A stretch of DNA of 64,000 nucleotides from an uncultured Planctomycetota bacterium (lineage in GTDB: Bacteria; Planctomycetota; Planctomycetia; Pirellulales; Thermoguttaceae), in NCBI GenBank assembly GCA_900317365.1, contig ONGM01000143.1, forward strand, positions 38,891 to 102,890. The letters run 5' to 3'. Shown one piece after another: positions 9,625 through 30,271 of this stretch. The position numbers and the translations under genes were made by a program. Every line of letters begins with the position of its first letter. Within the stretch, counting starts at the first letter, position 1. The notes beneath the pieces were generated by a model, which was given only the letters and a program-made list of their open reading frames with translations, was not told the DNA's origin and did not search any database.

Positions 9625-9653
9625 TTTAATCGTCTTTCTTTAGCGACTGGTGG

Positions 9654-12600: not shown

Positions 12601-12833
12601 CAAATTCGCGCGAGGTATTCCAGCGTTAGCGGCTCCATGTAGACCTTATCCGCGACAGTCGTGTCCGTCATGATCGTCGCAGGGTTAGAGTTAACTAAAA
12701 CGACCTCGAAACCTTCTTCTTTGAGCGCCAAGCAAGCCTGCGTGCCTGCGTAATCAAATTCTGCCGCTTGACCGACGACAATGGGACCGGATCCGATAAC
12801 CAACGTCTTTTTGATATCTGTTCGCTTAGGCAT
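9654..12833 (-). CDS. carB: Carbamoyl-phosphate synthase large subunit
   Basis: [33 protein letters not shown] with duplicated ATP-grasp halves. I place the start at ATG 12833, which gives an 8-nt ATGCCTAA overlap with the carA stop, rather than at the track's 12953. Confidence 0.95.
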
Positions 12834-13920
12834 TTTCTTTACTCTCGGCCATGTAATGTGTGAAACGGCTGAAAAGATACAAACTGTCTTGCGGTCCCGG
12901 CGCGCTTTCTGGGTGATACTGAACGCTAAAAACGCGATCGTCGGAACATTCAACGCCTTCGACCGTGTTGTCGAGAAGGTTGATATGCGTAATCTTTAAA
13001 TTCGTGCATTCCAAGCTTTCTGCGTCGACTGCGTAACTGTGGTTTTGCGACGTTATTTCGATCCTATTCGTCAAGAGATTTTTAACCGGATGATTGCCGC
13101 CGCGATGTCCGAATTTCAACTTATACGTCTTGGCGCCGTATGCAAGAGATATGATTTGGTGCCCTAAACAAACTCCGAAGACAGGAACGGAACCTCGTAA
13201 ACGCTTGACTGTGTCCACGACTTCCGGCACGTCCGTCGGATCGCCAGGTCCGTTCGAAACGAATACGCCGTCGGGTCTCATAAAGAGAATCTCTTCGGCT
13301 GGCGTGTTATAAGGAACGATCACGACGTTACACGAAAATCTCTTTAGTGAACGAACGAGATTAAGTTTCATTCCACAATCGATCGCAACGACGTTAAAGA
13401 TAGGATCCGCAGTGCGAGAATAACGCTTTTTTTTGCAAGAGACTCGCGACACGGCGTCGTTAGGGATCGGCGTCGACTGAATGCGCGCCAGGGCGACGTC
13501 GAGCGGCGTGTCGACGCCCGTCATAATTGCTCGTCTTGATCCGTAATCGCGAATGCTTCTCGTTAGTCGCCTTGTGTCGACCCCCGTGATCCCAGGCGCG
13601 TTGCAATCCTCAAGAAGCTCGCTCAACGTTTTAACGGCGCGGAAGTTTGAAGGAGAATCGTTATAGTCCCCCACGATCATTCCGCCGATACTTGGATTGA
13701 CGCTCTCGAAATCGTCGTCGGTAATTCCATAATTACCGATGAGCGGATATGTCATCGTGACGAATTGATCCGTATACGACGGATCCGACGCAATCTCCTG
13801 ATATCCGACAGGAGAGGTGTTAAAAACGACTTCGCAAACACGTTCAACGCTTGCGCCAAAACCGTAACCGTAAAATTCTTTACCGTCTTCCAGCACCAAC
13901 TTTCGATCTTTTTTTCTCAT
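12826..13920 (-). CDS. carA: Carbamoyl-phosphate synthase small (glutaminase) subunit
   Basis: 364 aa with the class-I GATase motif VFGVCLGHQ and HRGGNHPV, ending [11 protein letters not shown]. Confidence 0.95.
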
Positions 13921-14007
13921 GATTTTCTCCGTCGCATGGTGAGGCGCGTCGGCAAGCAGGGCTTCATTTTTCGCTTGCTGTATGGCGTGTCGTTCCGGGT
14001 CGAGCGC

Positions 14008-14691
14008 TTAATCTCGACGCATGGCTATAATGGTTTCCGCTATTTCCTTTTTGGTTACGCAACGATCCATCGCTTGCTTTTCAATATAACGGTGCGCTTC
14101 TCCTTCCGTCATTTTCAATTGCTCGACAAGAAGCAACTTCGCATGATTGATTATGCGAATTTCTTTCATTTTTTCCTCAACAGTAGCCGTCTTTTTCTCC
14201 AGCATACGCAGTCGTTCTCGAACGCCGCATAGAAACGAAAGGTGTTGAAGAACGACCTGTCCCGCCGTTGGCTTCGAGAGAACGCACACCCCTCGAGGAG
14301 TCGCTTTCGCGTTGACTTCGGCAAAGACTTCCTGATACACAAAGATCATTGCGCACGCTCCGTGCTCGTCGCAGACGTCGAAAGCGAATTCTACGCCAAA
14401 TTCGTCCGGCAAAGGCGCGTTTACAACGATAACGTCATAGCTTCTTTCAAGGAACTTCCTTTTAGCGTCCGCAGCGGTCGTTACAGTCGTCGGGCGATAC
14501 TTGGGTTTAGGAAGGATCATGACGAGCGAGTTTGCAAAAGCGGCGCTCGCCGACACAATGAGAATCGAATAAGAACGGTCGAGATAAAAATCGTCGTCTC
14601 GACGTTTCGCCCTTCTTCCTCCTAATACGCCGTCGATTCCTCCGCGCGAAGATCGGCGCTCATGAGTTGTGCTGAAACCTTGCGATTCCAT
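14008..14691 (-). CDS. ANTAR-domain RNA-binding antiterminator with N-terminal pseudo-receiver
   Basis: The C-terminus IRIINHAKLLLVEQLKMTEGEAHRYIEKQAMDRCVTKKEIAETII fits ANTAR. The receiver-like part has ILIVSASA in place of the DD pocket and VIVVNAPLP in place of the phospho-Asp, while LSKP is retained. Confidence 0.8.
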   Translation of the reverse strand: MESQGFSTTHERRSSRGGIDGVLGGRRAKRRDDDFYLDRSYSILIVSASAAFANSLVMILPKPKYRPTTVTTAADAKRKFLERSYDVIVVNAPLPDEFGVEFAFDVCDEHGACAMIFVYQEVFAEVNAKATPRGVCVLSKPTAGQVVLQHLSFLCGVRERLRMLEKKTATVEEKMKEIRIINHAKLLLVEQLKMTEGEAHRYIEKQAMDRCVTKKEIAETIIAMRRD

Positions 14692-14721
14692 AGCGCGTCC
14701 TCTCTGTTTTTCTAAACGCGT

Positions 14722-15945
14722 TTATTCTTCGTCGGCAAGCGCAATGTAGTGGTTCGCGATTTGTTGTGGTATTTTTTCGTTAATTAAGGAACTGCTTTTA
14801 GTTGCTTCGGCGGCTTCGCGAAGGGACAACGGCACGCGCTCTTCGACAATGCGTTCAGACTCTTGATTCGCGCCGGGCTCAATCGGAAGCGGCGGTTGTA
14901 CTTCGTTGTCGATCCCGTCGAGAGCCGACCAAATAAGCAACGCGTTCGCCAAATACGGATTGCAGGTAGAATCAGGAGTTCCGAGTTCTACCGTCTTTCG
15001 ATCGGCGCCGTCGTTTGAGAGACGAACGATCTGTTCGCAACTCTCGCGAGACCATGCGACTTTTTTGGGCACGTTGCTTTCTCTCAATCTTTGATACGAA
15101 TTCGCCGTCGGATTAAAAAAGAGCGTCATTGCGCAAATATTCTTCAAAAGACCGCCAATTGCGTAACGCCAATACTCGTTATTGTTACCGTTATTCTGTT
15201 GGATGCGAAATTTCAATCTCATCGCGTTTCCAGGTTGATTCGCCATTGGCAGAGGGGAAAAATCTGCGAAAAGTCCGTGCGCCGCAGCGATCGTATTAAC
15301 GACAAAGCGAAACGTTACCGCCGCGTCCGCCGCCGCGAGAGGATCTAGCGAACAAAAATCTATTTCATTCTGTCCCGGTCCAACCTCGTGGTGAGAACTC
15401 ACCGGTTTGACTCCCATTTGCTCGAGACTCAGACATATTTCTCGGCGAATGTTTTCACCTTTGTCGTCAGGTGACACGTCCATATATCCTGCGGAGTCGA
15501 AAGGTTCCCGCGTTGGTAAGCCGTTCTCGTCGCGACGGAAAAGATAGAATTCCATTTCGGAACTAATAGCAAAGGAAACGCCCTTAGATTCAGCTTCTTG
15601 AATCGCTCGAATTAAAACCGACCGCGAATCGGACTCAAAAGACGTTCCGTCGGGATAAGAGATCGAGCAAAACATTCGAATAACTCTTCCCCGTTCCGGA
15701 CGCCACGGTAAGACCGCGATCGTCGACGTGTCCGGACGGAGTAAAAGATCAGAGTTTGCGCGCGTTTCAAACCCGCGAATTGCCGAAGATTTAATTGGAA
15801 CGCCGCACTCGAACGCATTTCGCAATTCGTCCGACATGATCGACGTATTCTTCTTGCGACCAAAAACGTCCGTAAACGCGAGACGAATGAATTTAACGTC
15901 TTCTTCGGCTACGTACTGCTCAATTTCATTGATTGTATATTTCAT
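14722..15945 (-). CDS. Glutamine synthetase type-I-like protein, divergent and possibly non-catalytic
   Basis: The GS N-terminus (VKFIRLAFTDVFG), EMEFYLF, HHEVGPGQNEIDF and NPTANSYQRL are present. However, GSGMHxHxSL is replaced by GNAMRLKFRI and E-V-R-x-PD by E-L-G-T-PD. I prefer the start at ATG 15945 over TTG 15966. Confidence 0.8.
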   Translation of the reverse strand: MKYTINEIEQYVAEEDVKFIRLAFTDVFGRKKNTSIMSDELRNAFECGVPIKSSAIRGFETRANSDLLLRPDTSTIAVLPWRPERGRVIRMFCSISYPDGTSFESDSRSVLIRAIQEAESKGVSFAISSEMEFYLFRRDENGLPTREPFDSAGYMDVSPDDKGENIRREICLSLEQMGVKPVSSHHEVGPGQNEIDFCSLDPLAAADAAVTFRFVVNTIAAAHGLFADFSPLPMANQPGNAMRLKFRIQQNNGNNNEYWRYAIGGLLKNICAMTLFFNPTANSYQRLRESNVPKKVAWSRESCEQIVRLSNDGADRKTVELGTPDSTCNPYLANALLIWSALDGIDNEVQPPLPIEPGANQESERIVEERVPLSLREAAEATKSSSLINEKIPQQIANHYIALADEE

Positions 15946-15998
15946 TTGCGTCTTTCTATCTTCCAACGATCAATCATCTCGTGATCGTAGACAAAGCG

Positions 15999-16721
15999 TC
16001 AGTTCGCGACGTACATTTGCTTATAAGGATTAGCGACGTTCGGCGTGACCAGAGTAAAAGGTTCGTCAATAATCTTGGCAAAATCGTATCCAAACGTTTC
16101 ACAGAACTTTGCGATCAATGGACGAATTTCAGCCAAGTCTTCAGGATTTGCTATTTTTACCGTTGTTTGCTCGGGAAAAGAAACGGTTCCGAGCCCGCCT
16201 CGAACGAAAAGCTTTCCGCCGTGCATACCCGCGCATGGGAACGCTCCTAACGTTTCCTTGTCGTCCTTATGCAGACCAAGAGCTACGATCAGTCCACCCG
16301 CCTGATATTCTCCTAAAAAGCTACCGACACGTCCGCCGATGACGATCGCAGGCTTTTTCTCTTTGTATTCCTTCATATGGATGCCGACGCGATAGCCGGC
16401 GTTTCCTTGAACGAGTATTATTCCACCGCGCATCGCGTATCCGACCGCGTCGCCAACATTTCCATGAATCACAATCAAGCCGTCGTTCATCGTGTCTCCG
16501 ACCGCGTCTTGCGCGTTCCCTTCTACGATGATTTCCGAGCCGGCAAGGTAAGCGCCGAGCGCGTTGCCCGGAACGCCGGAAATCACAATTCGCTTGCCGC
16601 GAGATCCCGACGCGATGAAACGTTGTCCGAGACACTCGACGATTTTCAGTTCGTCGCCCGACTGATAAATCTCGTCGTTCAAAACGTCAAAACTCTTATT
16701 TTTGGCTTCTATCACTCTCAC
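15999..16721 (-). CDS. Glutamate synthase GXGXG-domain subunit (GltB C-terminal domain homolog)
   Basis: Repeated G-x-G beta-helix motifs (ISGVPGNALGAYLAG, VEGNAQDAVGDTMNDG, IHGNVGDAVGYAMRGG, VQGNAGYRVG). I prefer the start at GTG 16721, 5 nt after a GGAGG, over the track's TTG 16769. Confidence 0.8.
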   Translation of the reverse strand: MRVIEAKNKSFDVLNDEIYQSGDELKIVECLGQRFIASGSRGKRIVISGVPGNALGAYLAGSEIIVEGNAQDAVGDTMNDGLIVIHGNVGDAVGYAMRGGIILVQGNAGYRVGIHMKEYKEKKPAIVIGGRVGSFLGEYQAGGLIVALGLHKDDKETLGAFPCAGMHGGKLFVRGGLGTVSFPEQTTVKIANPEDLAEIRPLIAKFCETFGYDFAKIIDEPFTLVTPNVANPYKQMYVAN

Positions 16722-16790
16722 TTTTGCCTCCGAACGTCGATGAATGCACACCTGTTGCGTTGCGATCAAACCAAGGAACAGAACTGCTCG

Positions 16791-18296
16791 TTACTCGCCT
16801 GCGTGTTTAATTCCTAAAATGTCCAATTCCTTTTCGGTCATACCGATACCTCGCAACATCAACCGATTTCCTCGAAGCGTTTCTATGGAGTTAATTCCCA
16901 TGCCGCCCATGAGTTCTTTAATTTCATGGCGCCACGCGGACAGAAGATTTACAAGTCTTCTGGCGCCGACGTTAGGATCAAGTCTTTGAACAAGTTCCGG
17001 TCGTTGAGTGGCGATTCCCCAATTGCATCGACCCGTCTGACATGAACGACATAGTCGACATCCCAACGCGATCAACGCAGCCGTGGCGATATAACATGCG
17101 TCCGCGCCCAATGCAATCGCTTTAACGACGTCGGCCGCGTTACGAATACTCCCGCCGACAACGAGGGAAACGTTGTTTCGTATACCTTCCGCACGAAGTC
17201 GTTCGTCTACCGCAGCGAGCGCTAGTTCGACGGGAATTCCAACGTTGTCGCGAATACGCGTCGGCGCCGCGCCTGTTCCACCTCGAAAACCGTCGATCGC
17301 GATAATATCCGCGCCGCTACGCGCCACTCCGCTAGCGATCGCGGCAATGTTATGTACCGCTGCAACTTTAACGATGATCGGCTTAGTGCGCCTGGTCGCT
17401 TCTTTCAGAGAGTAGACCAATTGGCGGAGATCCTCGATCGAATACACGTCGTGATGCGGCGCCGGCGAAATGGCGTCGACTCCTTCTGGGATCATTCTCG
17501 TTCTCGACACGTCGCCTACAATTTTGGCGCCCGGTAAGTGCCCGCCGACTCCCGGCTTTGCTCCCTGCCCCATCTTGATCTCGATCGCCGCTCCTGCGTT
17601 GAGATAATCCTCGTGAACGCCAAAGCGCCCGGAAGCGACCTGCACGATCGTATTTGCGCCGTATCGATAGAAGTCCTCATGAAGACCGCCTTCACCGGTA
17701 TTATAGAAGACCCCGAGTTCCTGAGCCGCGCGCGCTAAACTTTCATGCGCGTTGTAACTGATCGAGCCGTAGCTCATCGCCGAAAACATGACCGGCGTCT
17801 CCAGGACAAGTTGCGGCTCCATCGACACGTCCAACGAGCCGTCCGAAGCCCGACGAATTTGCTCAGGCTTTTTGCCCAGAAAAACGCGCGTTTCCATTGG
17901 TTCGCGCAGTGGATCAATCGAGGGGTTGGTTACCTGCGACGCGTTGATCAGTATTCGATCCCAATAGACCGGAGTCGGTTTAGGCGCCCCCATCGACGAG
18001 AGCAAAACCGCGCCGGTATTCGATTGTTTGACGATCTCGCTGATCAAATCGGCGGACCAATTGGCATTCTCTTTGAACGAATTCTCATTCTTGACGATTT
18101 TGAGCGCGCGCGTCGGACACATCGCGACGCAACGCTGACAGTCGACGCATTTGCTTTCGTCGACGACAAGCTTTCGCGAGCGCTCGTCAATTCGATGAAC
18201 TCCATTGGCGCATTCGCGAACGCATAAATTACACGACACGCACCGTTCGAGATTTCTTACAACGTCAAACTCAGAGGAAAGGTACTGGACGGACAT
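16791..18296 (-). CDS. Glutamate synthase FMN/Fe-S subunit with N-terminal 2x[4Fe-4S] ferredoxin domain (archaeal type)
   Basis: CVSCNLCVRECA and CVDCQRCVAMCP, then GEGG, KMGQGAKPGVGGHLPG and the GGTGAAP FMN-domain motifs. Its ATG shares one base with the upstream stop (TAATG). Confidence 0.85.
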   Translation of the reverse strand: MSVQYLSSEFDVVRNLERCVSCNLCVRECANGVHRIDERSRKLVVDESKCVDCQRCVAMCPTRALKIVKNENSFKENANWSADLISEIVKQSNTGAVLLSSMGAPKPTPVYWDRILINASQVTNPSIDPLREPMETRVFLGKKPEQIRRASDGSLDVSMEPQLVLETPVMFSAMSYGSISYNAHESLARAAQELGVFYNTGEGGLHEDFYRYGANTIVQVASGRFGVHEDYLNAGAAIEIKMGQGAKPGVGGHLPGAKIVGDVSRTRMIPEGVDAISPAPHHDVYSIEDLRQLVYSLKEATRRTKPIIVKVAAVHNIAAIASGVARSGADIIAIDGFRGGTGAAPTRIRDNVGIPVELALAAVDERLRAEGIRNNVSLVVGGSIRNAADVVKAIALGADACYIATAALIALGCRLCRSCQTGRCNWGIATQRPELVQRLDPNVGARRLVNLLSAWRHEIKELMGGMGINSIETLRGNRLMLRGIGMTEKELDILGIKHAGE

Positions 18297-19387
18297 TAGA
18301 GCGCTCCTTTCTGAACCTTGAAAATCACCGGTTCGCCCCCTGCCGGAGCATAGACCTTTTCGGCGTTTGGCGCCATGATTCGTATCGCGGCTTCTTCGCT
18401 TGCGACGTAACGCATGTCGTCCTTTTCCGCAACAACCATCGAGCGCAACTTCAGTCGATCGTTGAGCGCCATAAGTCCCCCGTCAAATCCTAAAACAATC
18501 GAAAAAGGCCCCGTTAAAAGGAGACTCGGAAAAACCTTGCGAAGGTAAGAAAGCTGCTCCGATTCTTTTTGCGGGAGACTGTCGACAACGCTCCAAAAGG
18601 GAGCGGCTATTACGGCCGCAGTCTCTTCGAGCGTCAGCTTTTGTCGACGCAAGAGGTAATCGGCAATATACGCGATGACTTCCGTGTCCGTCTGAAGCGA
18701 ACATTTGTATCCAAACATCTCGATAAACCGTCGATTGGCGTCGTAAGAGGAAATCTCCCCGTTATGTACAACAGTGTAATCGAGGATTCCAAACGGATGG
18801 GCGCCTCCCCACCATCCAGGCGTATTCGTGGGGTAACGTCCGTGCGCCGTCCAAGCGTATCCTGCGTATTCTTCCAATCGATAAAACCGTCCAACGTCTT
18901 CCGGAAACCCGACCGCCTTAAAGGCGCCCATGTTTTTCCCGCTAGAAAAAACGTACGAACCTTGAAATTGCGAATTGATTTTTATGACGGTTCGCGCGAC
19001 AAATTCTTTTTCATCGAGCTGAAGACGAGAAAGAACAGACTGCAACGGCGCGACAAAATAGCGCCATATTATCGGTACGTCGGTAATTTCAGGGATCTTG
19101 CGAATTGGTATCGGTTCCGACTTGACGATCTCGTAGCCTTCTTTGAGGTACTTTTCGCACTCTTTTTGCGCGGCGACGTCGTCAAAAAAAACATGAAAGG
19201 CGTAGAAGTCTTGAAAATCCGGATAAATCCCATACCCTGCGAATCCGCCCCCGAGACCGTTGGATCTGTCGCGCATGGGAACCATACTCTTGGTAATGGC
19301 CTCGCCTGTTGTCGCCGCGCCCTTGAGCGAAATCATCGCTGAAATCGCGCATCCTGAAGGAATACGAACCTGTCCTTCCCTTTGCAT
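18296..19387 (-). CDS. Class-II (Ntn) glutamine amidotransferase subunit of split glutamate synthase
   Basis: 363 aa containing RIPSGCAIS..., HGRYPTNTPG and VHNGEISSY. The catalytic Cys is residue 13. Confidence 0.85.
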   Translation of the reverse strand: MQREGQVRIPSGCAISAMISLKGAATTGEAITKSMVPMRDRSNGLGGGFAGYGIYPDFQDFYAFHVFFDDVAAQKECEKYLKEGYEIVKSEPIPIRKIPEITDVPIIWRYFVAPLQSVLSRLQLDEKEFVARTVIKINSQFQGSYVFSSGKNMGAFKAVGFPEDVGRFYRLEEYAGYAWTAHGRYPTNTPGWWGGAHPFGILDYTVVHNGEISSYDANRRFIEMFGYKCSLQTDTEVIAYIADYLLRRQKLTLEETAAVIAAPFWSVVDSLPQKESEQLSYLRKVFPSLLLTGPFSIVLGFDGGLMALNDRLKLRSMVVAEKDDMRYVASEEAAIRIMAPNAEKVYAPAGGEPVIFKVQKGAL

Positions 19388-19413
19388 AGACTCTCACCCT
19401 TTCTGCTGACGCC

Positions 19414-19467
19414 AAAAAAAAAAGCGCCCACTCGCGGAAGTACTCTACGTGCTTCGCGAATGAACGC
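19414..19467 (-). terminator. Leader (attenuator) terminator of the glutamate-synthase operon
   Basis: Minus-strand RNA reads GCGUUCAUUCGCGAAG-cacguagagua-CUUCCGCGAGUGGGCGC followed by U10. That gives 16 bp including 3 GU pairs and one bulged C. It ends 26 nt before the ATG at 19387. Confidence 0.7.
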
Positions 19468-19477
19468 CTTTGCTCAT
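19460..19477 (-). promoter_or_regulatory. Hexaloop hairpin (candidate ANTAR-binding antiterminator element)
   Basis: AUGAGC-AAAGGC-GUUCAU is a 6-bp stem with a 6-nt loop carrying A at position 1 and G at position 4. Its 3' arm is part of the terminator's 5' arm, so the two structures are mutually exclusive. Confidence 0.5.
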
Positions 19478-19574
19478 CGGTGAAACATTTTAGCGCCTCT
19501 TTCGAAAACGTCAAGGAAAAAGAATGAAAAAATTTAAGAAAAGGTAATCTTTTAACAGACGTTTCAACAGATTT

Positions 19575-19604
19575 ATTATACCATTGAGACGCGTCGATGC
19601 TTAA
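19575..19604 (-). promoter_or_regulatory. Candidate promoter of the glutamate-synthase operon (TTAAGC-18-TGgTATAAT)
   Basis: An extended -10 TGGTATAAT (-10 hexamer at 19575..19580) and a weak -35 (19599..19604). This implies a leader of about 180 nt. Confidence 0.4.
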
Positions 19605-19690
19605 AAACAAGTAGCATTCTTGCAAGTATTAAACTTATGACAACATATTTTGACTTCTTTTCCTAAACTTATAAAATCGCATATTCGAGT

Positions 19691-19753
19691 CAAAGGCGAG
19701 AAAAACCGATTCGATTTCCCTCGCCTTTGCGAGAAAAACGGCGACTCCGTTTC
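19691..19753 (-). terminator. Nested hairpins downstream of asnB (probable terminator region)
   Basis: On the minus strand, AAACGG-agucg-CCGUUUUU lies directly after the asnB stop. It is followed by CAAAGGCGAG-19 nt-CUCGCCUUUG (10 bp), with the alternative CUCGC-AAAG-GCGAG. Confidence 0.4.
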
Positions 19754-19759
19754 AGCCCC

Positions 19760-21340
19760 TTAAATTCCGCTCGCTCCGTAGTTCGAAAGAACGCGCGCGG
19801 AAGGATCGTTGACGTCGCAACCTTTCCAGCTCTTATTCGGCATCCAGAAGTCGACGATCATTTGACTTTGTTCAGGATAATACTTCTCAAAGATCTCACG
19901 ATACAACAACGATTCCTTCGTGAATGGAGTCGCATGCGCGAACTTGCCGCGTTTCGAATCAAATTCGGCGTCGGAATAGCGACTTTCGGCAAACTCTTTC
20001 AAGTAATCGACCATGGAATGACCGACGGCGTCGGAAAACGCCGCTTTTTCCCGATACAAAATCTCAGGAGGAAGGTATTCGCCGTCTTCAAAAGCCTTTC
20101 GCAACAAGTATTTTCCTTTGTTGTAGACGTTCATTTTCTTGTGCGGATCAATTGACAAGACGTATTTAACGAAATCAAGATCGCCGAACGGTACGCGCGC
20201 TTCGAGCGAGTTCACTGAAATACAGCGGTCGGCGCGCAAGACGTCGTACATATGAATCTCGCGAATACGTTTCTCGGACTCGAGTTGGAACTCTTCGGCA
20301 GAAGGTGCGAAGTCCGTGTACTTGTAGCCAAAAAGCTCGTCGGAAATTTCTCCCGTGAGCAGAACGCGAATATCGGTGTTTTCGTGAATCCATTTGCAAA
20401 GAAGATACATTCCCATGCTGGCGCGAATTGTCGTTATATCGAACGTGCCGAGCATTCTCACGACAAAATCGAGAGAGTCGAGAACTTCCTCTTTCGTCAT
20501 GTACACCTCGGTATGAACGCTTCCAATATAGTCGGCGACCGTTTTTGCGTATTTTAAATCGATGGCGTCTTCGCTCATGCCAATGCCAAAGGTTTTTATC
20601 GGCGTTCTCAATTCCTTTTGCGCTATCGCGCAGACAAGGGACGAGTCGAGACCGCCGGAAAGAAGAAACCCGATTTTCGAATCGGATTCCAAACGTTTTT
20701 TGACGCCTGCGATCAACTTTGATTTGATCTTGGAAAAAGTCGTAGGAAGATCGTCTCTCGAATACGTCTCGACTTTAGCGATATCGCAATAGCAAAAGAA
20801 GCGACCGTCTTTATAGTAATGCCCCGGCGGAAAAGGGAGCGTTTTTTGACACAGTGAAACGAGGTTTTTCGGTTCGCTGGCAAAAACGATGGCGCCCGAC
20901 TCCGTATACCCGTAGTACAGCGGTCGAATCCCGACGGGATCGCGCGCCGCTATCAGGGTCTGCGCTTCCGCGTCGTATAATATCAAGGCGAACTCGGCGT
21001 CAAGTTCCTTAAACATCTCGACGCCTTTTTCTCGATATAGAGGGAGCAGTATTTCGCAATCGGATCCGCTTTTAAAGCGATACGTTTTGGACAGTTCACG
21101 CTTGAACTTTTGGAATCCATAGATTTCTCCGTTACATACGAGCCAATTATCACCGAGCTGGAAAGGCTGCATACCTTCCGGAGTCAAGCCCATAATTGAA
21201 AGGCGATGAAACCCGAAGTATCCGTTCCCGACTTTTACAATGCGAGAATCGTCAGGTCCCCTCGAAACCGTTTCAGAAAATCCTTTTTGAAAATCCGCAA
21301 GCGAAACGCTCGCGCTATCGCAACCCATAATAGAACACAT
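19760..21340 (-). CDS. asnB: Asparagine synthase (glutamine-hydrolysing)
   Basis: The start is set at ATG 21340 so the protein begins MCSIMGC (Ntn Cys2), with a GAAAGGA RBS. FLLSGGLDSS is the PP-loop. The track ORF start at 21412 is too long. Confidence 0.9.
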   Translation of the reverse strand: MCSIMGCDSASVSLADFQKGFSETVSRGPDDSRIVKVGNGYFGFHRLSIMGLTPEGMQPFQLGDNWLVCNGEIYGFQKFKRELSKTYRFKSGSDCEILLPLYREKGVEMFKELDAEFALILYDAEAQTLIAARDPVGIRPLYYGYTESGAIVFASEPKNLVSLCQKTLPFPPGHYYKDGRFFCYCDIAKVETYSRDDLPTTFSKIKSKLIAGVKKRLESDSKIGFLLSGGLDSSLVCAIAQKELRTPIKTFGIGMSEDAIDLKYAKTVADYIGSVHTEVYMTKEEVLDSLDFVVRMLGTFDITTIRASMGMYLLCKWIHENTDIRVLLTGEISDELFGYKYTDFAPSAEEFQLESEKRIREIHMYDVLRADRCISVNSLEARVPFGDLDFVKYVLSIDPHKKMNVYNKGKYLLRKAFEDGEYLPPEILYREKAAFSDAVGHSMVDYLKEFAESRYSDAEFDSKRGKFAHATPFTKESLLYREIFEKYYPEQSQMIVDFWMPNKSWKGCDVNDPSARVLSNYGASGI

Positions 21341-21390
21341 TTTGCATTCCTTTCTCGATGATCCTTTGATAATCTTTTGTGTAATGGCAT

Positions 21391-21436
21391 AAAACCCGCC
21401 CGCAGACGACAAGCCCTGGAAATCGTCGCGGGCGGG
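21391..21436 (-). terminator. GC-rich hairpin plus UUUU between amt-PII and asnB (terminator or partial terminator)
   Basis: Minus strand: CCCGCCCGCGACGA-13 nt-UCGUC(U)GCGGGCGGG followed by UUUUA. Confidence 0.5.
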
Positions 21437-21490
21437 CGCCAGACACGCGCGTCTGGCTTATTTCATTGGCGGACAGTTTTCCGTGTTTGA

Positions 21491-23236
21491 TTACGCTTCC
21501 TCGTCTTGCAACGCGTCGTAACCTTCCTCGCCTGTCCTCACTTTGATCGCGTTTTCAACGTCGTAGACGAAGATCTTGCCGTCTCCGATTCTGCCGGTGT
21601 ACAATGTCTTTTTAACCGTGTCGATTAGATCGCTCACAGGTATCTTGCTAATAACGACGTCAACTTGAACCTTTGGTAAAAGATTCGTTTCAACTTGTAC
21701 CCCGCGGTAATACTCCGGGCGTCCGCGTTGAACGCCGCAGCCTAAAACGTGCGAGACGGTCATTCCGGTAACGCCGAGCGCCGACAAAGCCTCTTTCAAC
21801 GCGTCGAACCTTGATTCTTTGCATATAATCTCGACCTTCGTGAGTTTCCGCGTTCCCTGACTAGTAGTCGTTGCAAAGATTGGTTCACGTTTAACAGGGA
21901 TAGCCTCGGCAACGGGAACGTCGCCTTGAACTACCTGAACGCCGCCGATCGGCGCAAAATCGGAGAACCGATTGACTGCCGGTGCAAAATCAGGATACGC
22001 CGACGGAAGTCCGTGTTCAGTCTTGTCCAAACCGAGAATCTCATCTTCAGCGTTGACGCGCATTCCGACTGTAAGATCAATCAGCTTGAAGGCAATACAA
22101 AGGACGACGAGGGCGTAGGCGGCAACGCTAGCAATGCCGAGGCATTGAATCTTTAACGCTGAGAGGTCGCCGGTGTAAAAAAGACCAGAAATTCCAGCCG
22201 GCGCGTCGGGATTAGCAAAAAGTCCAACCGCAAACGTTCCCCAAACGCCGCACGCTAGATGAACGCCAACGGCGCCGACCGGATCGTCAATGTGAAATCT
22301 CAGATCGAGCTTTTCGACGATGAAGACGACGAGAAAACCTGCGACAATTCCGATAATGATCGAACCGATCGCGTCAACCGCGTCGCAACCTGCCGTAATT
22401 CCAACCAAGCCGGCGAGAGACGCGTTTAGGCACATCGAAACGTCGGGTTTGCCGTTTTTCACCCAGGTATAAACCAGCGCGGCGCACGTAGCGAACGCAG
22501 GAGCTAGGGTTGTTGTGAGAAAGATTGCGGAGAGTTCGGACGCAGACGTTGCCGCCGCGCCGTTAAAGCCGTACCATCCTAGCCACAAAATGAACACTCC
22601 CAACGCGCCAAGCGTGATTGAATGTCCAGGAATCGCGTTGATCTTTGAAACCTTTCCGCGATCGTCGCGACGATATTTCCCAATTCGCGCTCCGAGCAGG
22701 ATCGCGCCGATCAGAGCGGCGAATCCGCCGACCATGTGAATCGCGCAAGAACCGGCGTAATCGTGAAAACCTCGTTGCGCAAGCCAACCGCCGCCCCAAA
22801 TCCAATGCGCCTCGATAGGATAAACGAGGAGCGAAAGAATGATCGAATACAAACAGTAGGCTGAGAATTTCGTTCGTTCAGCCATGGCGCCGGACGCGAT
22901 CGTTGCGGTCGTTGCACAGAAGACAAGGTTGAAGACGAACGTCGAAGCCGGAGTGAACTCGTCGGCGGAAGGATTCGTTATGAACAATTTGAAATTGGTG
23001 AAAATCTCGAAATTTGGTCTTCCAATCAGCCCGAAAAAAGAATCGGCGCCAATGAGAAGAGAGTATCCAAGCGTGGAAAACGCCACCGCGCCTAGACAAA
23101 AATCCATGAGATTCTTCATGACGATATTACCGGCGTTCTTCGAACGAGTAAATCCGGCTTCAACCATCGCGAATCCCGCTTGCATCCAAAAGACTAACGC
23201 CGCGCCAATTAAAAACCAAAACTCAACGGTAATCAC
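21491..23236 (-). CDS. Ammonium transporter (Amt) fused to a C-terminal P-II (GlnK/GlnB) domain
   Basis: The Amt core has FWMQAGFAMVEAGF, AIHMVGGFAAL and VHLACGVWG. The last ~118 aa (21494..21847) are KVEIICKESRFDALKEALSALGVTGMTVSHVLGCGVQRGRPEYYRG...GDGKIFVYDVENAIKVRTGEEG, which is P-II. The start is probably GTG 23236, 7 nt after an AGGAG that overlaps the glnN stop; the track's TTG 23242 is too close to the RBS. Confidence 0.9.
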   Translation of the reverse strand: MITVEFWFLIGAALVFWMQAGFAMVEAGFTRSKNAGNIVMKNLMDFCLGAVAFSTLGYSLLIGADSFFGLIGRPNFEIFTNFKLFITNPSADEFTPASTFVFNLVFCATTATIASGAMAERTKFSAYCLYSIILSLLVYPIEAHWIWGGGWLAQRGFHDYAGSCAIHMVGGFAALIGAILLGARIGKYRRDDRGKVSKINAIPGHSITLGALGVFILWLGWYGFNGAAATSASELSAIFLTTTLAPAFATCAALVYTWVKNGKPDVSMCLNASLAGLVGITAGCDAVDAIGSIIIGIVAGFLVVFIVEKLDLRFHIDDPVGAVGVHLACGVWGTFAVGLFANPDAPAGISGLFYTGDLSALKIQCLGIASVAAYALVVLCIAFKLIDLTVGMRVNAEDEILGLDKTEHGLPSAYPDFAPAVNRFSDFAPIGGVQVVQGDVPVAEAIPVKREPIFATTTSQGTRKLTKVEIICKESRFDALKEALSALGVTGMTVSHVLGCGVQRGRPEYYRGVQVETNLLPKVQVDVVISKIPVSDLIDTVKKTLYTGRIGDGKIFVYDVENAIKVRTGEEGYDALQDEEA

Positions 23237-23247
23237 GACCAATCTCC

Positions 23248-25344
23248 TTATCGAACGCTAAACAGGATCTTTTCATAGGTCGGGAACGGCCAATATTTTT
23301 CAGCGACGAGTGTTTCCGCTTCGTCGCACACTAGGCGCAACTCCGTCATTCGCGGCAAGATCTCGTCGCGAATCATAACGGACGCCTCGGTAACGTCGCC
23401 AATCGTTTTGAGTTGTACGAGCGATACGTCTAGTCTCTGGGTCGCGGCGTCAATTTCGTCAACGATACGTGAAAGCTTTGCGAGGAGGTTCTTTTCATAC
23501 CGTCCTGATACTTCCGGCGCAATGGCGTTTTTGGCGACGGCCGTTTCCGCAATGTCTTTAACATAGGATTCGACGGCCGGCAAAATATCCTTGCGCGCCA
23601 TATCCACCATCGTTAAGCCTTCGATCGTTACCGTCTTGCAGTAATTGTCCAACGTGATTTCGTATCGGGATCTAATCTCAGAAACAGAATAAATCCCGAG
23701 AGAGACGAGCAAATCGACGTTCTTTTTATTGAGAAGGGCCGGCAGAGCGTCCGGAGTCGTGCGGAGATTGAGAAGCCCGCGCTCTTCCGTCGCCTCTTTA
23801 ATCCATGCGTCGTCGTATCCGTTGCCGTTGAATACGACTCGACGATGGTCTTTGAACGTCTTTTTAATCATCTCGTGAAGCGCCGTCTCAAAATCGGTTG
23901 CGTTTTCCAAACGATCGGCGTAAATCTTGAGGGACTCGGCGACTGCGGCATTCAGCATGATATTGGCGCACGCAATGCTGTTTGAAGAGCCGAGCATACG
24001 GAATTCAAACTTATTGCCGGTAAAGGCAAAAGGAGACGTCCTGTTGCGATCCGTCGAATCGCGATTGAAATTCGGCAATACGTTAGCGCCCAGTTTCATA
24101 ACCGTCTTTTCCGCGCCGACGTAAGGAGCGTCGTTTACGATCGCGTCCATAATGGCGGTCAGTTCGTCCCCGAGGAAAATCGAAATCACCGCAGGAGGGG
24201 CTTCGTTCGCGCCAAGTCGATGGTCGTTGCCCGCCGTCGCTACCGATAGTCGAAGAAGATCTTGATAGTCGTCCACCGCCTTAATTACGGCGCAGAGGAA
24301 AAGGAGGAACTGCGCGTTCTCGTACGGCGTTTCACCAGGAGTCAAAAGGTTGACGCCTGTGTCCGTAGCCATCGACCAGTTGTTGTGCTTACCGGAACCG
24401 TTGACGCCTGCAAAAGGCTTTTCATGCAACAAGCAGACGAGACCGTGCCGAGAGGCAACCTTCTGCATGATCTCCATCGTTAATTGGTTGTGATCCGTGG
24501 CAACGTTCGTCGTCGTATATATCGGAGCGAGCTCGTGCTGAGCCGGCGCCACTTCGTTGTGTTCCGTTTTAGCGAGGATCCCAAGTTTCCACAACTCTTC
24601 GTTGAGGTCCGCCATATAGGCGGCGACGCGCGGCTTAATGACGCCGAAGTAATGATCCGACATTTCCTGCCCTTTCGGCGGTTTTGCGCCGAAGAGGGTT
24701 CGACCGGTCATGATCAAGTCTTTGCGTTCAAGAAAAACCTTTTCGTCGATCAGAAAATACTCTTGTTCCGGACCAACCGAAGTGCGAACGCATTTGACGT
24801 CCGTTTTGCCAAAGAGTTTTAAGATCCGCAACGCCTGAACGTTGAGCGCTTCCATCGATCGAAGGAGTGGCGTCTTTTTGTCCAACGCTTCGCCGCCGAA
24901 GGAACAGAACGCCGTCGGAATGCACAGCGTTTTTCCCTTAATGAACGCGTACGACGTCGGATCCCACGCCGTGTATCCCCGCGCTTCAAAGGTCGCGCGC
25001 AAACCGCCAGACGGAAAAGACGACGCGTCCGGTTCGCCTTTAATGAGCTCCTTACCGGAAAACTCCATAATGACGCGTCCGTCAGGGGACGGCGTAATAA
25101 AGCTGTCGTGTTTCTCGGCAGTTACGCCGGTAAGGGGCTGGAACCAGTGTGTAAAATGCGTCGCGCCGCGAGCAACCGCCCAATCCTTCATTGCAGCCGC
25201 CACCGCGTCGGCGACCCCGCGATCAAGGGGAGCGCCTTCGTCAATCGTTTTTTTCAGCGAGCGATAAACGTCGTCGGAAAGGGACGCCTTCATGACGCGG
25301 TCGTCGAACACCATAGAACCGAAATACTCGGGAACAGAACTCAT
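23248..25344 (-). CDS. glnN: Glutamine synthetase type III
   Basis: 698 aa. The N-terminus [20 protein letters not shown], plus [11 protein letters not shown] and GSGKHNNWS, are characteristic of GSIII. Confidence 0.9.
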
Positions 25345-25364
25345 CTCATTACCCCTTCATGCAC

Positions 25365-25407
25365 AAAAAAAGGCAACGACGTTTTGGAAAACCAAGACGC
25401 CGTTGCC
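25365..25407 (-). terminator. glnN leader terminator 2
   Basis: GGCAACGGCGU-c-UUGG-uuuu-CCAA-a-ACGUCGUUGCC followed by U7. It has 15 bp and ends about 20 nt before the ATG at 25344. Confidence 0.65.
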
Positions 25408-25410
25408 TCG
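25393..25410 (-). promoter_or_regulatory. Hexaloop hairpin H2 overlapping terminator 2
   Basis: CGAGGC-AACGGC-GUCUUG has a 6-bp stem (2 GU pairs) and a loop with A1/G4. It shares nucleotides with the 5' arm of terminator 2. Confidence 0.45.
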
Positions 25411-25420
25411 TTTTATCGAT

Positions 25421-25469
25421 AAACAAAAAAGGGGTCTCAGAAAAGAATTTTCATCTTTTCCGAGACCCC
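25421..25469 (-). terminator. glnN leader terminator 1
   Basis: GGGGUCUCGGAAAAG-9 nt-CUUUUCUGAGACCCC forms 15 bp and is followed by UUUUUUGUUU. Confidence 0.7.
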
Positions 25470-25478
25470 TTTGCCTCA
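25461..25478 (-). promoter_or_regulatory. Hexaloop hairpin H1 overlapping terminator 1
   Basis: UGAGGC-AAAGGG-GUCUCG has a loop with A1/G4. Its loop and 3' arm form the 5' arm of terminator 1. Confidence 0.45.
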
Positions 25479-25489
25479 TTCGATCGCTG

Positions 25490-25517
25490 ATTCTATACCA
25501 TGTCGCCGAATAGTCAA
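25490..25517 (-). promoter_or_regulatory. Sigma-70-like promoter of glnN operon (TTGACT-16-TAGAAT)
   Basis: -35 at 25512..25517 and -10 at 25490..25495 on the minus strand. Confidence 0.5.
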
Positions 25518-25942: not shown

Positions 25943-28900
25943 TTATTTGCGATCGCGGCGGATTTGATAGTCTCCCCAGAGCGGAACGTTTAGATCAATC
26001 CAACATTTGATCGCCTGCTCTTCTTCGGGGCTTAAATTGACGCCGTCGTGTTGCGCCTCTTTAAGAACGTCGAATAGTCGACTCTTGGCGACGCCAAAGG
26101 TATACGGCGCGGCCTTCGTCGTTTTTCCGCCGCCCCATGTGTAGTCAAAGTAATGAATCGTTCCGCTTTGAATTAACGAGCGATATGAGTTCGGGATCTT
26201 GTTCGCGTCACGGTCGCCGGTCAAATCGATAATTCGTGAAGCTAGCGCCGCCGTATCGGCGTTATGACACTCGACGCAATGTTTGTTCAGAATCGGTTGA
26301 ACGATTCGTTCATACCAAAACGGGCCGGCTCCCCACGGCGGCGCGACCAGCCGTTGCGGATCGCCTGCCGACGCCTTCGTAAGTCCGCCTTCCGGGGCGC
26401 TCAATCGATTTTCATGACATCCTACGCACGAACGCCGTTCGCCAGGTCGGAGTTGGACGACGGAGCGCATGCGTTGAATCTCATTGTAATTCTCGTCCAA
26501 CAGTTCGAAAAAGAGAACTTTTTCCGCCGGAACGAGAAAATCGACGGAGCCGTCTTCTTCAATTTCTACCGTGCCGAGAACGCCTTTCGCAACGTACGAG
26601 GGCCACCCGTAGGCGCCTTGTAGAACGTCGACGGGCGAAGCGTAGTACTCCATGAAGGGTTCGTGATCGGCTTGATAGGTTCCGTCGTCGAGTTGAATGA
26701 GATTCGTCGGAAGCTCTTGGCACACGCGCAAGTACTTTGCGGCGCCCGGTTTGACCTGACCCTCTAGCCCTCGATAGACGTTGGCGACGGAAAAATAGCC
26801 AAGTTTCTGATCAGCAAGGGTCGGATCCGCCGAAGCGCCTGTGACCGGCGGCGTCTCGCGCGGCGCGAAAGGTTGGGGACAAATCGTGTCGATTTCGGGA
26901 TCAATCGTCAGTAACTCTCGATTGCCAAAGCGATCGATTAAGTAAACTCCAAATCGATCAAAATGTGCGTGCGAGACGAGAATAATATCCCTCGAAATAG
27001 GAGTCGGTTCGCGAAACGTTTCCGAGCGCGCCCAGTAGCCGGGCCAAGGGACCTCCGGCGTAATCGACCGAATAGCCGACGGATCGTGCGGTCCTTTCGA
27101 CAGATCGATCAGGGCAACCGGTCCGTTGAGGTCGCCAAAGTGTGAAATCATAACGCAACAGACTTCATTGGAATCGGGAACGCGTTTACCGTTCGCGTAA
27201 CCTTGCGGCAAGTTAATCGTGTTTCCAAATGTCAGCTCAGGCGACGTCCCGTCCGCGCGAATAGTCCACAACGTGTGCCCGTAATCCGCTCCTTTATCGA
27301 CGTATTCCGAACGCGTCCACATAATTCTCCCGTCGTCGCACACCGACGGCGCAAACTCGGAAAGATTGGCGTAGGAAAGAGGTTCCAAGCCCGTTCCGTC
27401 CATATCCATTCGATGAAGAACAAAAGCTTGCGGACGCCAACAGATGAATTTTTTCTTACATCTCGTCGATACGAACGCAAGACCTCCGTCGGGAAGTTCC
27501 GTAGGCCAAAAATCATGGAACGGTCCAGGCGGGCTTATGCGTCGCTCGACGCCGGAAGTCAGATCGAGTTCGAAGATGCGATAGTACTCGTTTTGACTGA
27601 TTCGTTTTGCATAGTAAATCTTTTGTGCATCAAAGCTTTGCGACGGATTTCTAATAACGCCGTCCCCTGCCTCGACAAGATTTCGAGCGGTTGCTTCTTC
27701 CGGGGCAAGCCGACCGTCTTTAAACGGTATGTCGATCATAACGACGGCGCCGCCGGGATTCCAGGTTGAATCAAAGAGGTCGCTATAGTTGTGCGACGGC
27801 CAAAATGGATTTCGCTTGTTGGCGAGAATGTGAGAAAGGGATTCTAATTCCGGATTGGAGAGGAAGAGATCGCGTTTTAAGAGTCTCACGCGTAGGAAAA
27901 GATTACGCGTCGCCAGTAGACTTTCACGGCGGCGCTGAGAATCTTCGTCGCGCGCTGAGTTTTTCAATGAGTCAAGGAAAAGTTGCCAACACGCAAGAGC
28001 TTCAGTCTCGACAGAAGAAAGCTCCGGACGCTTTTGAAGGTCGTTGAAATACTCAATCAGAGCTTCTGCTTCGCCTTGGTCTCCCAATTTAGCCAGAATT
28101 GCTTTTGAATCGACATATCTCGGATTAACGCTCCCGTTCCACCGAACCTGTTTTGCGAAGTCACGTTCGTCAAGCTCGGTCGAACGACTTTCGGAACGCT
28201 CGAGCATATCTTTGAGTTGACATAACGGACGATACGACGGGTTGTATTTCAATCCAACAACGCGAAATTTATCCCCAGACTTTTGATCAACGATCGAACA
28301 GACAAGTTCAGGACCGGCGTAGCCCCACTCTCCCTGAACCTTTGTAATCGTAGTTTTTCCCGGCTGAACGGAGACGTCTTCCGCATTGATCGAGAAAACG
28401 CGATCCTCGTCGGAAGTTCCGACAAGACGTATTTCGAAATCCGCTGAAAAATCATTCGGAGGAGCGAGTTCAAGCGCAAAAGGCGCAGGCTTAAAATGGA
28501 CAGGTCTCCCGCCTGGCATGACGCGTCGCGCGCCTATGCCTAACCCTACGTAAAATCCACGTTCTTTTACGTCAGGCAGAAATTGTAAGGGAATTTTCAC
28601 CTGAAGAGTGTTGGCGTCAGGATTAAAGCAACCGTCGAGTTCCGTTTCGGAGCCGGCGTCCCGTTCGTCGAGCGGATCGATCTGTTTCCAAAGAACTTTC
28701 GTTTCAACCTTTCCCTCACAAACGTCGTCGCGAAGCGTAATGAATGCGCGATCAGGTATGTTTTCAGTCCCGATCATCGCGATATTTTCGGAGAGAAACC
28801 GATCGCCTGAAATTCTAAGCAAAAGCGCGTCTGGCGTAAAAACTGCGCTCACGGTTTGCTCCAGAAGCCCCCCCAAGAAGAAGGAGCCGCCGTTAAAGAC

Positions 28901-29818: not shown

Positions 29819-30271
29819 AACCGGTTCATCGTCCTTTCTGCATCTTGGAAAACGCACTCTCTCGCTGGCAAACTACGCGCGCAATTCAAATCTGATATTC
29901 GGCGTTCATGGCGTCATTGTAATCGGTCGCGCTAGGAATTTAAAGCATAGAGAAAAGAATTTCTCTATTTGTGGTCGGAGTCTTCACGATATCGGGTTCG
30001 CGCCATGTGCACGACGTGGAGGTTCTCGGGACGCTCTACGAAGAATTCGCGAGCGTGGCCTTCAATTTCAAGCCATTCTACTCTGAATCGCCCGTTTTTC
30101 ATTCTTAGCAAAACCTTTGAAAAGTTCACAAAGCTAAGCGACAGCCAAGACCGCTACAAACAGGAAAGATCGTCTAAGATAGAGTCGTCTAGAATGAGAA
30201 AGATGTGCCGAAATGATCATAGGCGACTCGAAAGCAACCAAAGCAAATTGCATTGCAAGGTCGAAAGCGAC

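Follow-up and report, generated by a model that had tools for sequence, protein, structure and literature searches.

The 64,000-nt window studied here (positions 38,891 to 102,890 of contig ONGM01000143.1, assembly GCA_900317365.1, from an uncultured Planctomycetota bacterium) carries two nitrogen-assimilation operons, beginning with glnN and with the genes for glutamate synthase (GOGAT), whose leaders combine small hexaloop hairpins with strong intrinsic terminators. These leaders probably belong to a regulon governed by transcription attenuation, in which an ANTAR protein acts as the antiterminator and the glutamine synthetase (GS)-like protein encoded beside it is the likely switch. The coupling of the glnN-amt and GOGAT operons by one ANTAR protein, acting through the hexaloop hairpins, is strongly supported by the sequence comparisons. 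More than 60 species were found to combine the hairpin motif, overlapped by a terminator, with a GS-like gene that adjoins the ANTAR gene.

Hairpin and terminator units in the two leaders

The elements of the two leaders are given below; the free energies of the hairpins are for the hairpin alone.

25490..25517, minus strand: glnN operon promoter, sigma70-type, TTGACT-16-TAGAAT (promoter scan)
25461..25478, minus strand: candidate antiterminator hairpin B1, UGAGGC-AAAGGG-GUCUCG, -6.0 kcal/mol
25421..25472, minus strand: terminator 1, 19-bp stem (25472..25428) and U tract, -30.8 kcal/mol
25393..25410, minus strand: candidate antiterminator hairpin B2, CGAGGC-AACGGC-GUCUUG, -4.9 kcal/mol
25365..25409, minus strand: terminator 2, stem (25409..25370) and U tract, -26.3 kcal/mol
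19487..19514, minus strand: promoter of the GOGAT/GS-like/ANTAR operon, sigma70-type, TTGACG-16-TAAAAT (promoter scan)
19460..19477, minus strand: candidate antiterminator hairpin A, AUGAGC-AAAGGC-GUUCAU, -4.3 kcal/mol
19414..19471, minus strand: terminator A, stem (19471..19421) followed by 10 U, -28.3 kcal/mol

A first-pass annotation of this DNA had placed strong terminators in both leaders, and folding agrees with it: the minimum free energy (MFE) of the glnN leader is -67.6 kcal/mol (z -8.4 against shuffles) and that of the GOGAT leader -39.2 kcal/mol (z -4.0). The three hairpins likewise match the sequences quoted there, and all of them overlap with the 5′ arms of their respective terminators. 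All three are 18 nt in length and consist of a 6-bp stem and a hexaloop of the form AANGGN (AAAGGG, AACGGC, and AAAGGC), with A at loop position 1 and G at position 4 in every case. The loop and 3′ arm of B1 form the 5′ arm of terminator 1, as do those of hairpin A for terminator A, and terminator 2 covers nearly all of B2. The U tracts behind the three terminators contain 6-10 U. Since the terminators (-26 to -31 kcal/mol) are far stronger than the hairpins (-4.3 to -6.0 kcal/mol), the terminator is expected to win unless the hairpin is held.

The glnN leader reads, in order, B1, terminator 1, B2, terminator 2, and start codon, and thus comprises two hairpin/terminator units, with B1 and B2 50 nt apart and terminator 1 between them. 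The GOGAT leader is a single such unit, and the ANTAR gene does lie behind its own attenuator, as the first-pass annotation had stated, hairpin A and terminator A standing ahead of the whole GOGAT/GS-like/ANTAR operon. Only 11 nt separate the end of the -10 box from B1, and 9 nt separate it from hairpin A. A search of the GOGAT leader for a second hexaloop hairpin, either upstream or within the loop of the terminator, was negative.

Conservation and covariation of the hairpin motif

The first-pass annotation had also leaned on the A1/G4 loop as the signature of ANTAR targets. As a generic pattern this fails: a 6-bp stem with an ANNGNN loop occurs 33 times in the window versus 24 +/- 4.7 times in dinucleotide shuffles, which is not significant, so that the loop signature by itself is no evidence. 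The significance of the motif rests on its specific consensus, its position, and its conservation in relatives, where A1 and G4 proved invariant across 57 distinct sequences.

Relatives were drawn from 80 loci taken from a scan of one representative genome per species and eight more added by exact-protein look-up; their leaders are mostly from gut Clostridia, with a few from planctomycete metagenome-assembled genomes (MAGs). L046 (Brotomerdimonas butyrica) is the sole locus that belongs to a cultured strain with a name, and others, such as L043 and L055, are from Ruminococcus MAGs. Searching with the bare core GCAANGGNGY picked out these two leaders in almost all loci. The matches fall into two classes. 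Class A (RUGRGC-AANGRC-GUUCAY) lies ahead of the operon with the GS-like and ANTAR genes, and class B (xAAGGC-AANGGC-GUCUUx) ahead of glnN. Behind class B there is often another unit, aaaaCGAGGC-AAYGRC-GUCUUG, which has a terminator to itself; the window shows this arrangement too. Hairpin A is near-identical in the leaders of more than 50 species, B1 is the ortholog of the hairpin that comes first in the glnN leaders of relatives, and the B2-like sequence is kept as the second unit in many clostridial glnN leaders. At least one strict motif unit is present in 61 of 69 GS-like/ANTAR operon leaders and in 38 of 39 glnN leaders. Three of the eight operon leaders lacking it were read: those of loci L063 and L020 are variants without the closing C-G pair, and that of L056 is AT-rich with no motif. 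The two variants (L063, 8646..8663, GGGGAC-AAAGGC-UUUCCG; L020, 1584..1601, AAAAGC-AAAGGA-AUUCAU) keep the terminator and could be useful for defining recognition rules.

Among the 57 distinct 24-nt sequences, G8, C9, A10, A11, G13, G16, and U17 never vary. They correspond to the stem-closing G.U and C-G pairs and to the first, second, and fourth positions of the loop; at the third, all four bases occur. Stem cells are paired in 92.7% of cases and covariation reaches 0.597 versus 0.25 in shuffles (0 of 500 attain it), in sequences that had been pre-selected for the four inner pairs; sliding the partner by one column reduces pairing to 38-44%. A less biased test, made with core matches only, revealed that the four outer positions all pair in 83 of 127 leader matches versus 16 of 295 matches elsewhere. 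The two classes differ from each other by a double compensatory swap at two stem positions (G-C, A-U versus A-U, G-C). Conservation and covariation in orthologous leaders, which the first-pass annotation had proposed as a check, were therefore both found.

RNAalifold analysis of 41 class A leaders recovered the terminator, the base of which is made by the GGC-GUUC portion of the hairpin, and compensatory changes occur in 9 of the 14 pairs of this consensus terminator. The 5′ arm of the hairpin falls outside the terminator and is yet conserved, which together with the covariation of the terminator argues that both alternative structures are under selection. A sigma70-type promoter was found in 54 of 57 class A leaders, with the -10 box ending 6-14 nt (mode 8-9) before the hairpin, and the first class B hairpin shows the same spacing. 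The hairpin thus stands at the very start of the RNA, and the sequence ahead of it is too short to hold a P1 hairpin. The arrangement of one hexaloop hairpin per terminator, which the first-pass annotation had described as a variant architecture, holds on this evidence.

Two further explanations of the conserved 18-mer, as a DNA operator (an imperfect palindrome after the -10 box) or as a leaderless leader peptide (AUG AGC AAA GGC...), draw on its location at about +1 to +20 of the promoter and on the fact that class A mostly starts with AUG or GUG. Both were rejected and we regard them as highly improbable. The invariant G.U wobble (57 of 57) and the exchanges between A-U, G-C, and G-U pairs denote RNA pairing and not DNA symmetry; the element is always in the sense orientation and always overlaps a terminator; and the second glnN unit has no promoter ahead of it. 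As for a peptide, class B and some class A variants have no start codon, and codons past the hairpin are not conserved, whereas the stems covary.

A covariance model (R1) made from the leader hairpins was run on the window and on 1.25 Mb of relatives. In the window it recovered the three hairpins plus one match at 25366..25389 (plus strand), which was rejected as a symmetry artefact, being the reverse complement of the 3′ arm of terminator 2. A match at 37675..37698 (16 bits) was also discarded; it lies within a coding region and has no terminator. The relatives gave 120 matches, which by their coordinates, and not through individual mapping of each, belong to the two mapped leader regions. 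All of those examined lie in leaders of nitrogen genes, the lone exception to the two main leaders being that of gdhA. Rfam gave no match across the whole window at gathering thresholds, and at E<=10 the 6.3-kb region yielded chance matches alone (mir-14, BSnc120, and snR46).

The motif was also sought without any protein input. The exact class A 18-mer occurs in at least 120 metagenome contigs, mostly from the human gut, where the first downstream gene encodes the GOGAT amidotransferase subunit (51 contigs), the GS-like protein (24), or something else (27). The ANTAR gene follows in 26 of the 28 contigs that are long enough to assess.

The ANTAR protein and its GS-like neighbor

The two genes in question adjoin each other at the end of the GOGAT operon.

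14008..14691, minus strand: ANTAR gene; pseudo-receiver, coiled coil, and ANTAR domain, 227 aa (Pfam)
14722..15945 (open reading frame [ORF] from TTG 15966), minus strand: GS-like gene, GSI-alpha type; Gln-synt_N and Gln-synt_C (Pfam)

The ANTAR domain (PF03861) scores 56.5 bits against a cut-off of 27.3 and covers model positions 3-54 of 54; A184, A199, A207, and A218 do not vary across the family, and Y202 hardly does. A family profile finds Rv1626 (1s8n) as its best solved-structure match (residues 43-224, E 1.3e-16), and also matches EutV (6wsh) and AmiR (1qo0); the receiver-linker-ANTAR architecture is present. The receiver itself is degenerate. Response_reg reaches 22.6 bits, under its cut-off of 30.2; Asn91, invariant in 23 family members, stands at the phospho-acceptor Asp position of Rv1626 and NtrC-type receivers, and Ser-Ala-Ser is aligned to their acidic pair (EDE/DDE). 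The gene tables read for five representative loci, over ±10 kb each, list no histidine kinase. The residues thus support the first-pass claim that this protein cannot be phosphorylated. Planctomycete-type ANTAR proteins possess approximately 36 extra N-terminal residues (14583..14691, minus strand, in the window), which are Arg/Ser/Gly-rich and poorly conserved; the 194-aa proteins of Clostridia do not have this stretch.

The protein has 2294 database relatives, mostly 194-aa gut Clostridia proteins of 52-57% identity, and its nearest named relatives are from Planctomycetia MAGs. In the species scan, at least 585 species possess one. Of 89 sources mapped by tblastn, 86 have the GS-like gene directly upstream of the ANTAR gene, and each of the remaining three offers under 500 nt of upstream sequence before its contig ends; the co-occurrence that the first-pass annotation had asked to see checked is thus found. 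The gap between the two genes has a median of 35 nt and is at most 60 nt in 51 of 62 cases. Two look-ups begun from GS-like proteins found the ANTAR gene adjoining in both. The pair is placed behind split GOGAT genes, as in the window, or directly after the leader, and is often divergent from glnN and then followed by pyrG, guaA, nadE, or carAB. None of the listed homologues contains both GS and ANTAR domains, although no search aimed at fused proteins was made.

The likely start of the GS-like protein is ATG 15945 and not TTG 15966, which yields a 407-aa product identical to database protein P0121. Its nearest solved relatives are the GSI-alpha enzymes of M. mazei and B. subtilis (E about 1e-84). 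Catalytic positions were mapped by motif and are given in S. typhimurium numbering. The window copy keeps E129, E131, E212, E220, R321, R344, and E357 and carries the changes D50K, S53A, G265A, H269R, E327N, R339C, and R359G. It falls short of the full GlnA catalytic set and of the NCBIfam GlnA cut-off (TIGR00653; 272 bits against 429, with 327 bits for family member P0201). The claim that canonical ligands had been lost is therefore correct for the window copy but not for the family: nearly all of its 78 members keep D50, E129, E131, E212, E220, H269, R321, R339, R344, E357, and R359, metal and ATP ligands included, and most show E327K and S53A only. Glu327 is replaced by Lys in 76 of 78 members and Ser53 by Ala in 76 of 78, and the family has a 12-residue deletion after GxGMH. 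Two relatives share a loss at a position changed in the window copy, P0122 with D50A and P0166 with H269R. The window protein forms a long branch, 52-58% identical to all relatives, whereas its cluster neighbors are 73-85% identical to theirs and the nearest ANTAR relative is 79% identical, which points to a relaxed or changed constraint on the GS-like protein in this lineage.

It may be that the attenuators are real but that the GS-like protein is merely one of the enzymes they regulate, a GS or other gamma-glutamyl ligase, with the ANTAR protein controlled by PII, by a ligand such as cyclic di-GMP (c-di-GMP), or by its own abundance. The retention of D50, H269, R339, R359, and all metal ligands in 76-77 of 78 members speaks for this, as does the PII domain encoded in the regulated operon. 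Yet the family-wide E327K and S53A changes strike what we take, from the established S. typhimurium GS structure, to be the catalytic flap (Glu327) and the ammonium pocket (Ser53), the window copy is short of four more catalytic residues and is still a full-length ORF beside the ANTAR gene, and the genomes already have a type III GS (GSIII). The pairing with ANTAR is, moreover, invariant and the gaps are short, as for amiC-amiR and nasS-nasT. A full-length, always-linked gene which tolerates catalytic losses argues that catalysis is not what is selected, without establishing a role as sensor. On balance we consider this enzyme-only explanation rather unlikely, although NasT of Pseudomonas putida is reported to be modulated by c-di-GMP (PMC10783516), which would favor it. 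That the GS-like protein acts as a sequestering sensor is suggested by the gene linkage and by the erosion of the active site.

The proposed antitermination circuit may be set out as follows. The leader RNA would open, a few nt from its 5′ end, with the weak 18-nt hairpin, its stem closed by the invariant G.U and C-G pairs and its hexaloop of the form AANGRC. By default the strong terminator would form, borrowing the loop and 3′ arm of the hairpin, and transcription would stop before glnN or the GOGAT genes. Free ANTAR protein is presumed to bind and clamp the hexaloop hairpin, which would leave the base of the terminator unpaired and allow RNA polymerase to read through. With phosphorylation seemingly excluded, the likely switch would be the invariant, co-transcribed GS-like neighbor, which appears to keep a glutamate- and nucleotide-binding scaffold without ammonium-pocket and catalytic residues. 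We infer from the known systems that it would hold the ANTAR protein inactive, by contact, under plentiful glutamine (nitrogen). As the ANTAR gene lies within the GOGAT operon the system would feed back on itself, and since one class A hairpin precedes both the GS-like and the ANTAR gene, the presumed inhibitor would rise along with the activator.

A less assured joint reading goes further, and we advance it tentatively: a GS-derived pseudoenzyme, its ammonium pocket disabled by E327K/S53A and further eroded in the window lineage, might sense glutamine (or glutamate, a nucleotide, or 2-oxoglutarate) and sequester a pseudo-receiver ANTAR protein for which one 5′-terminal hexaloop per terminator is enough. 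Such a circuit might govern GSIII, Amt, GOGAT, glutamate dehydrogenase (GDH), and glutamine amidotransferase operons (pyrG-purF-carAB, guaA, and nadE) in hundreds of gut Clostridia species, with block transfer into gut planctomycetes.

Several points count against these proposals. EutV antitermination requires two hairpins 5-12 nt apart and fails with a longer linker (PMC8934654). Most GS-like family members have a near-complete active site and could be enzymes. The scanned loci were all picked via the ANTAR protein, so that co-occurrence is in part a product of construction and the RNA-motif contigs alone are independent. The strict motif is missing from 8 of 69 operon leaders, and the pairing statistics carry the pre-selection stated with them.

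Comparison with known systems

Control of GS and GOGAT genes by ANTAR proteins is already known. According to PMC6316151, which cites Stutz 2007, the ANTAR protein NitR, encoded after glnA, induces GS/GOGAT genes of Clostridium saccharobutylicum by antitermination. As far as that account goes, the glnA-nitR and gltAB operons resemble ours in having an ANTAR gene right after a GS gene, in the coupling of two operons, and in the link to nitrogen limitation; the difference is that glnA there is described as the working GS, whereas here that function falls to GSIII (glnN), and the ANTAR gene follows one for a shorter GS-like protein that shows E327K/S53A throughout its family and further losses in the window copy. 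The likeness to NitR, in the succession of GS-family and ANTAR genes and in the terminator leaders on GS and GOGAT operons, is one of description and not of sequence. Ramesh 2012 predicted ANTAR nitrogen regulons in Firmicutes (PMC3369931, Fig. 9, Table S2), with RNA matches before the GS+ANTAR operons of Alkaliphilus, Desulforudis, and Carboxydothermus (Table S2) and also before amt, PII, GOGAT, and asparagine synthase genes. Those regulons share with ours A1/G4 hexaloops which overlap terminators and the presence of several attenuators per regulon, but they were found with a dual-hairpin, short-linker model, whereas here one hairpin at the 5′ end serves each terminator. Thus, the concept of an ANTAR nitrogen circuit, as advanced in the first-pass annotation, was foreshadowed by NitR and PMC3369931, while the single-hairpin layout is apparently new.

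Published ANTAR targets are characterized by A1 and G4 in the loop, sequence-specific closing pairs, and overlap with a terminator (PMC3369931, PMC3369936). The canonical dual hexaloop target (P1 and P2 with a short linker) is absent from the window leaders, which do possess the A1/G4 hexaloop and the sharing of the terminator 5′ arm, and their consensus (GC-AANGRC-GU) is far more constrained than the targets of Ramesh 2012. The EutV-RNA structure showed an ANTAR dimer in contact with only one hexaloop at any given time, and the minimal site was redefined accordingly as a single hexaloop (PMC8934654). EutV/EutW of Enterococcus faecalis resembles the present system in its receiver-coiled coil-ANTAR architecture, its recognition of hexaloops, and the competition of hairpin with terminator; however, EutV is phosphorylated by a kinase and the ANTAR protein here has no acceptor Asp.

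A factor other than the neighboring ANTAR protein, be it another RNA-binding protein or a metabolite acting on a riboswitch, might read these switches, given that binding of the hairpin by ANTAR is our inference and that the element has no Rfam family. This is improbable: an element of 18 nt could not accommodate a known ligand pocket, the A1/G4 loop and sequence-specific closing pairs fit ANTAR targets, and motif and ANTAR gene travel together, across phyla too.

For the input to the ANTAR protein, the comparison is with systems that dispense with phosphorylation. As described in PMC3369931 and PMC3795266, AmiC/AmiR and NasS/NasT each couple a non-phosphorylated, receiver-like ANTAR protein to a co-transcribed sensor that releases it. 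The likeness lies in an ANTAR protein without a phospho-switch that is co-transcribed with a partner, here the GS-like candidate sensor; the sensors of those systems have the periplasmic-binding-protein fold, whereas the only invariant neighbor here is GS-derived. In Bacillus subtilis, GS signals glutamine excess to GlnR by contact (PMC9249791). GS-GlnR/TnrA thus offers a GSI-alpha glutamine sensor which passes its signal to a regulator by protein contact, but one in which the GS is a working enzyme and the regulators bind DNA, in contrast to a probably non-working GS and an output through RNA binding. By analogy with these three systems, the GS-like protein is the most likely input to the ANTAR protein.

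A literature search, outside whose scope most subscription journals lay, found no paper on the single 5′-terminal hairpin layout, its consensus, or a GS-like ANTAR partner. Searches for a GS-like/ANTAR sensor pair, a pseudoenzyme, or glnN antitermination in Ruminococcus gave nothing relevant, which does not prove that no such work exists. Both the single-hairpin layout and the GS-like partner therefore appear undescribed. To our knowledge, nitrogen sensing is poorly understood in gut Clostridia (Oscillospirales, Christensenellales, Lachnospiraceae, and others), and we know of no classical NtrBC or TnrA/GlnR circuits in them. The model proposed here is simple and testable, being built from just three parts (an 18-nt RNA hairpin, an RNA-binding protein, and its GS-like partner), and the element is widespread and well suited to experiment. 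If true, it would be the first natural case of ANTAR antitermination by means of one hexaloop alone, which the EutV-RNA structure had suggested could be enough, and it would also illustrate how an enzyme paralogue can be recruited to serve an RNA-binding regulator as its sensor. The consensus sequences RUGRGC-AANGRC-GUUCAY and xAAGGC-AANGGC-GUCUUx can be used now to annotate nitrogen regulons in metagenomes.

Gene cluster, reach of the predicted regulon, and surroundings

Every gene of the nitrogen cluster is on the minus strand, and identities are by Pfam.

19760..25344, minus strand: first regulated operon (glnN, amt-PII, and asnB)
25344..23248, minus strand: glnN (GSIII, type III GS)
23242..21491, minus strand: amt-PII fusion
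21412..19760, minus strand: asnB, which was not in the first-pass annotation
15999..19387, minus strand: split GOGAT, in three parts
19387..18296, minus strand: GOGAT part, GATase_2
18296..16791, minus strand: GOGAT part, Fer4 and FMN domain
16769..15999, minus strand: GOGAT part, GXGXG
13920..12826, minus strand: carA
12953..9654 (ORF), minus strand: carB, start uncertain
9624..8899, minus strand: nadE

The order glnN/amt-PII/asnB is also found in relatives L007, L011, and L027, and 372 nt separate asnB from the GOGAT genes. Downstream, carA-carB-nadE (8899..13920, minus strand) are probably co-transcribed with the ANTAR gene upstream of them; a terminator was searched for in the 87-nt ANTAR-carA spacer and none was found, and the same order follows the ANTAR gene in L001, L002, and L007.

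Hairpins of both classes precede other genes in relatives. A class A hairpin with its terminator stands before pyrG-purF-purC-carA-carB in L134 (125..5296) and in about 11 similar metagenome loci, among them L108, L114, L119, L125, L137, and L139, and a class B hairpin precedes gdhA in L079 (5102..5125, minus strand). The predicted regulon therefore reaches these enzymes, and spans ammonium assimilation and glutamine amidotransferases, including those of nucleotide synthesis, plus glutamate dehydrogenase.

From 8899 to 25517 the cluster proteins are 70-88% identical to gut Clostridia orthologues (compared with loci L003-L088), a likeness that takes in glnN, amt-PII, asnB, GOGAT, the GS-like and ANTAR proteins, the sigma70-type promoters, and the RNA hairpins. 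The nearest contigs are labeled as Planctomycetia or planctomycete MAGs and have the flanking carAB-nadE-rhamnosidase genes in common with the window. A Clostridia-like cluster whose nearest contigs are planctomycete-labeled suggests that it moved between phyla, regulator and RNA sites together.

Two spacers contain further structures. Between the asnB stop and the GOGAT promoter (19691..19738, minus strand) is a 10-bp inverted repeat, CAAAGGCGAG-19 nt-CUCGCCUUUG, which includes GCAAAGGCGA, similar to the hairpin core, and lacks a U tract; it could be a decoy site or a structure that marks the end of the operon. The amt-PII/asnB spacer (21413..21490, minus strand) has a 7-bp hairpin, GCCAGAC-GCGCGU-GUCUGGC, lacking both a U tract and an A1/G4 loop, while in L007 and L008 the same spacer contains the motif-like UCCGGC-AAGGGC-GUCGGC. 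An extra internal control point ahead of asnB is possible.

Directly upstream of the glnN promoter lies a 1304-aa ORF (25943..29857, minus strand) with a hydrazine-synthase-alpha middle domain (PF18582) and an F5/8 type C domain. Its neighbors are glycoside hydrolases (GH2 and rhamnosidase), and it is probably a carbohydrate-active surface protein with no relation to the attenuators.

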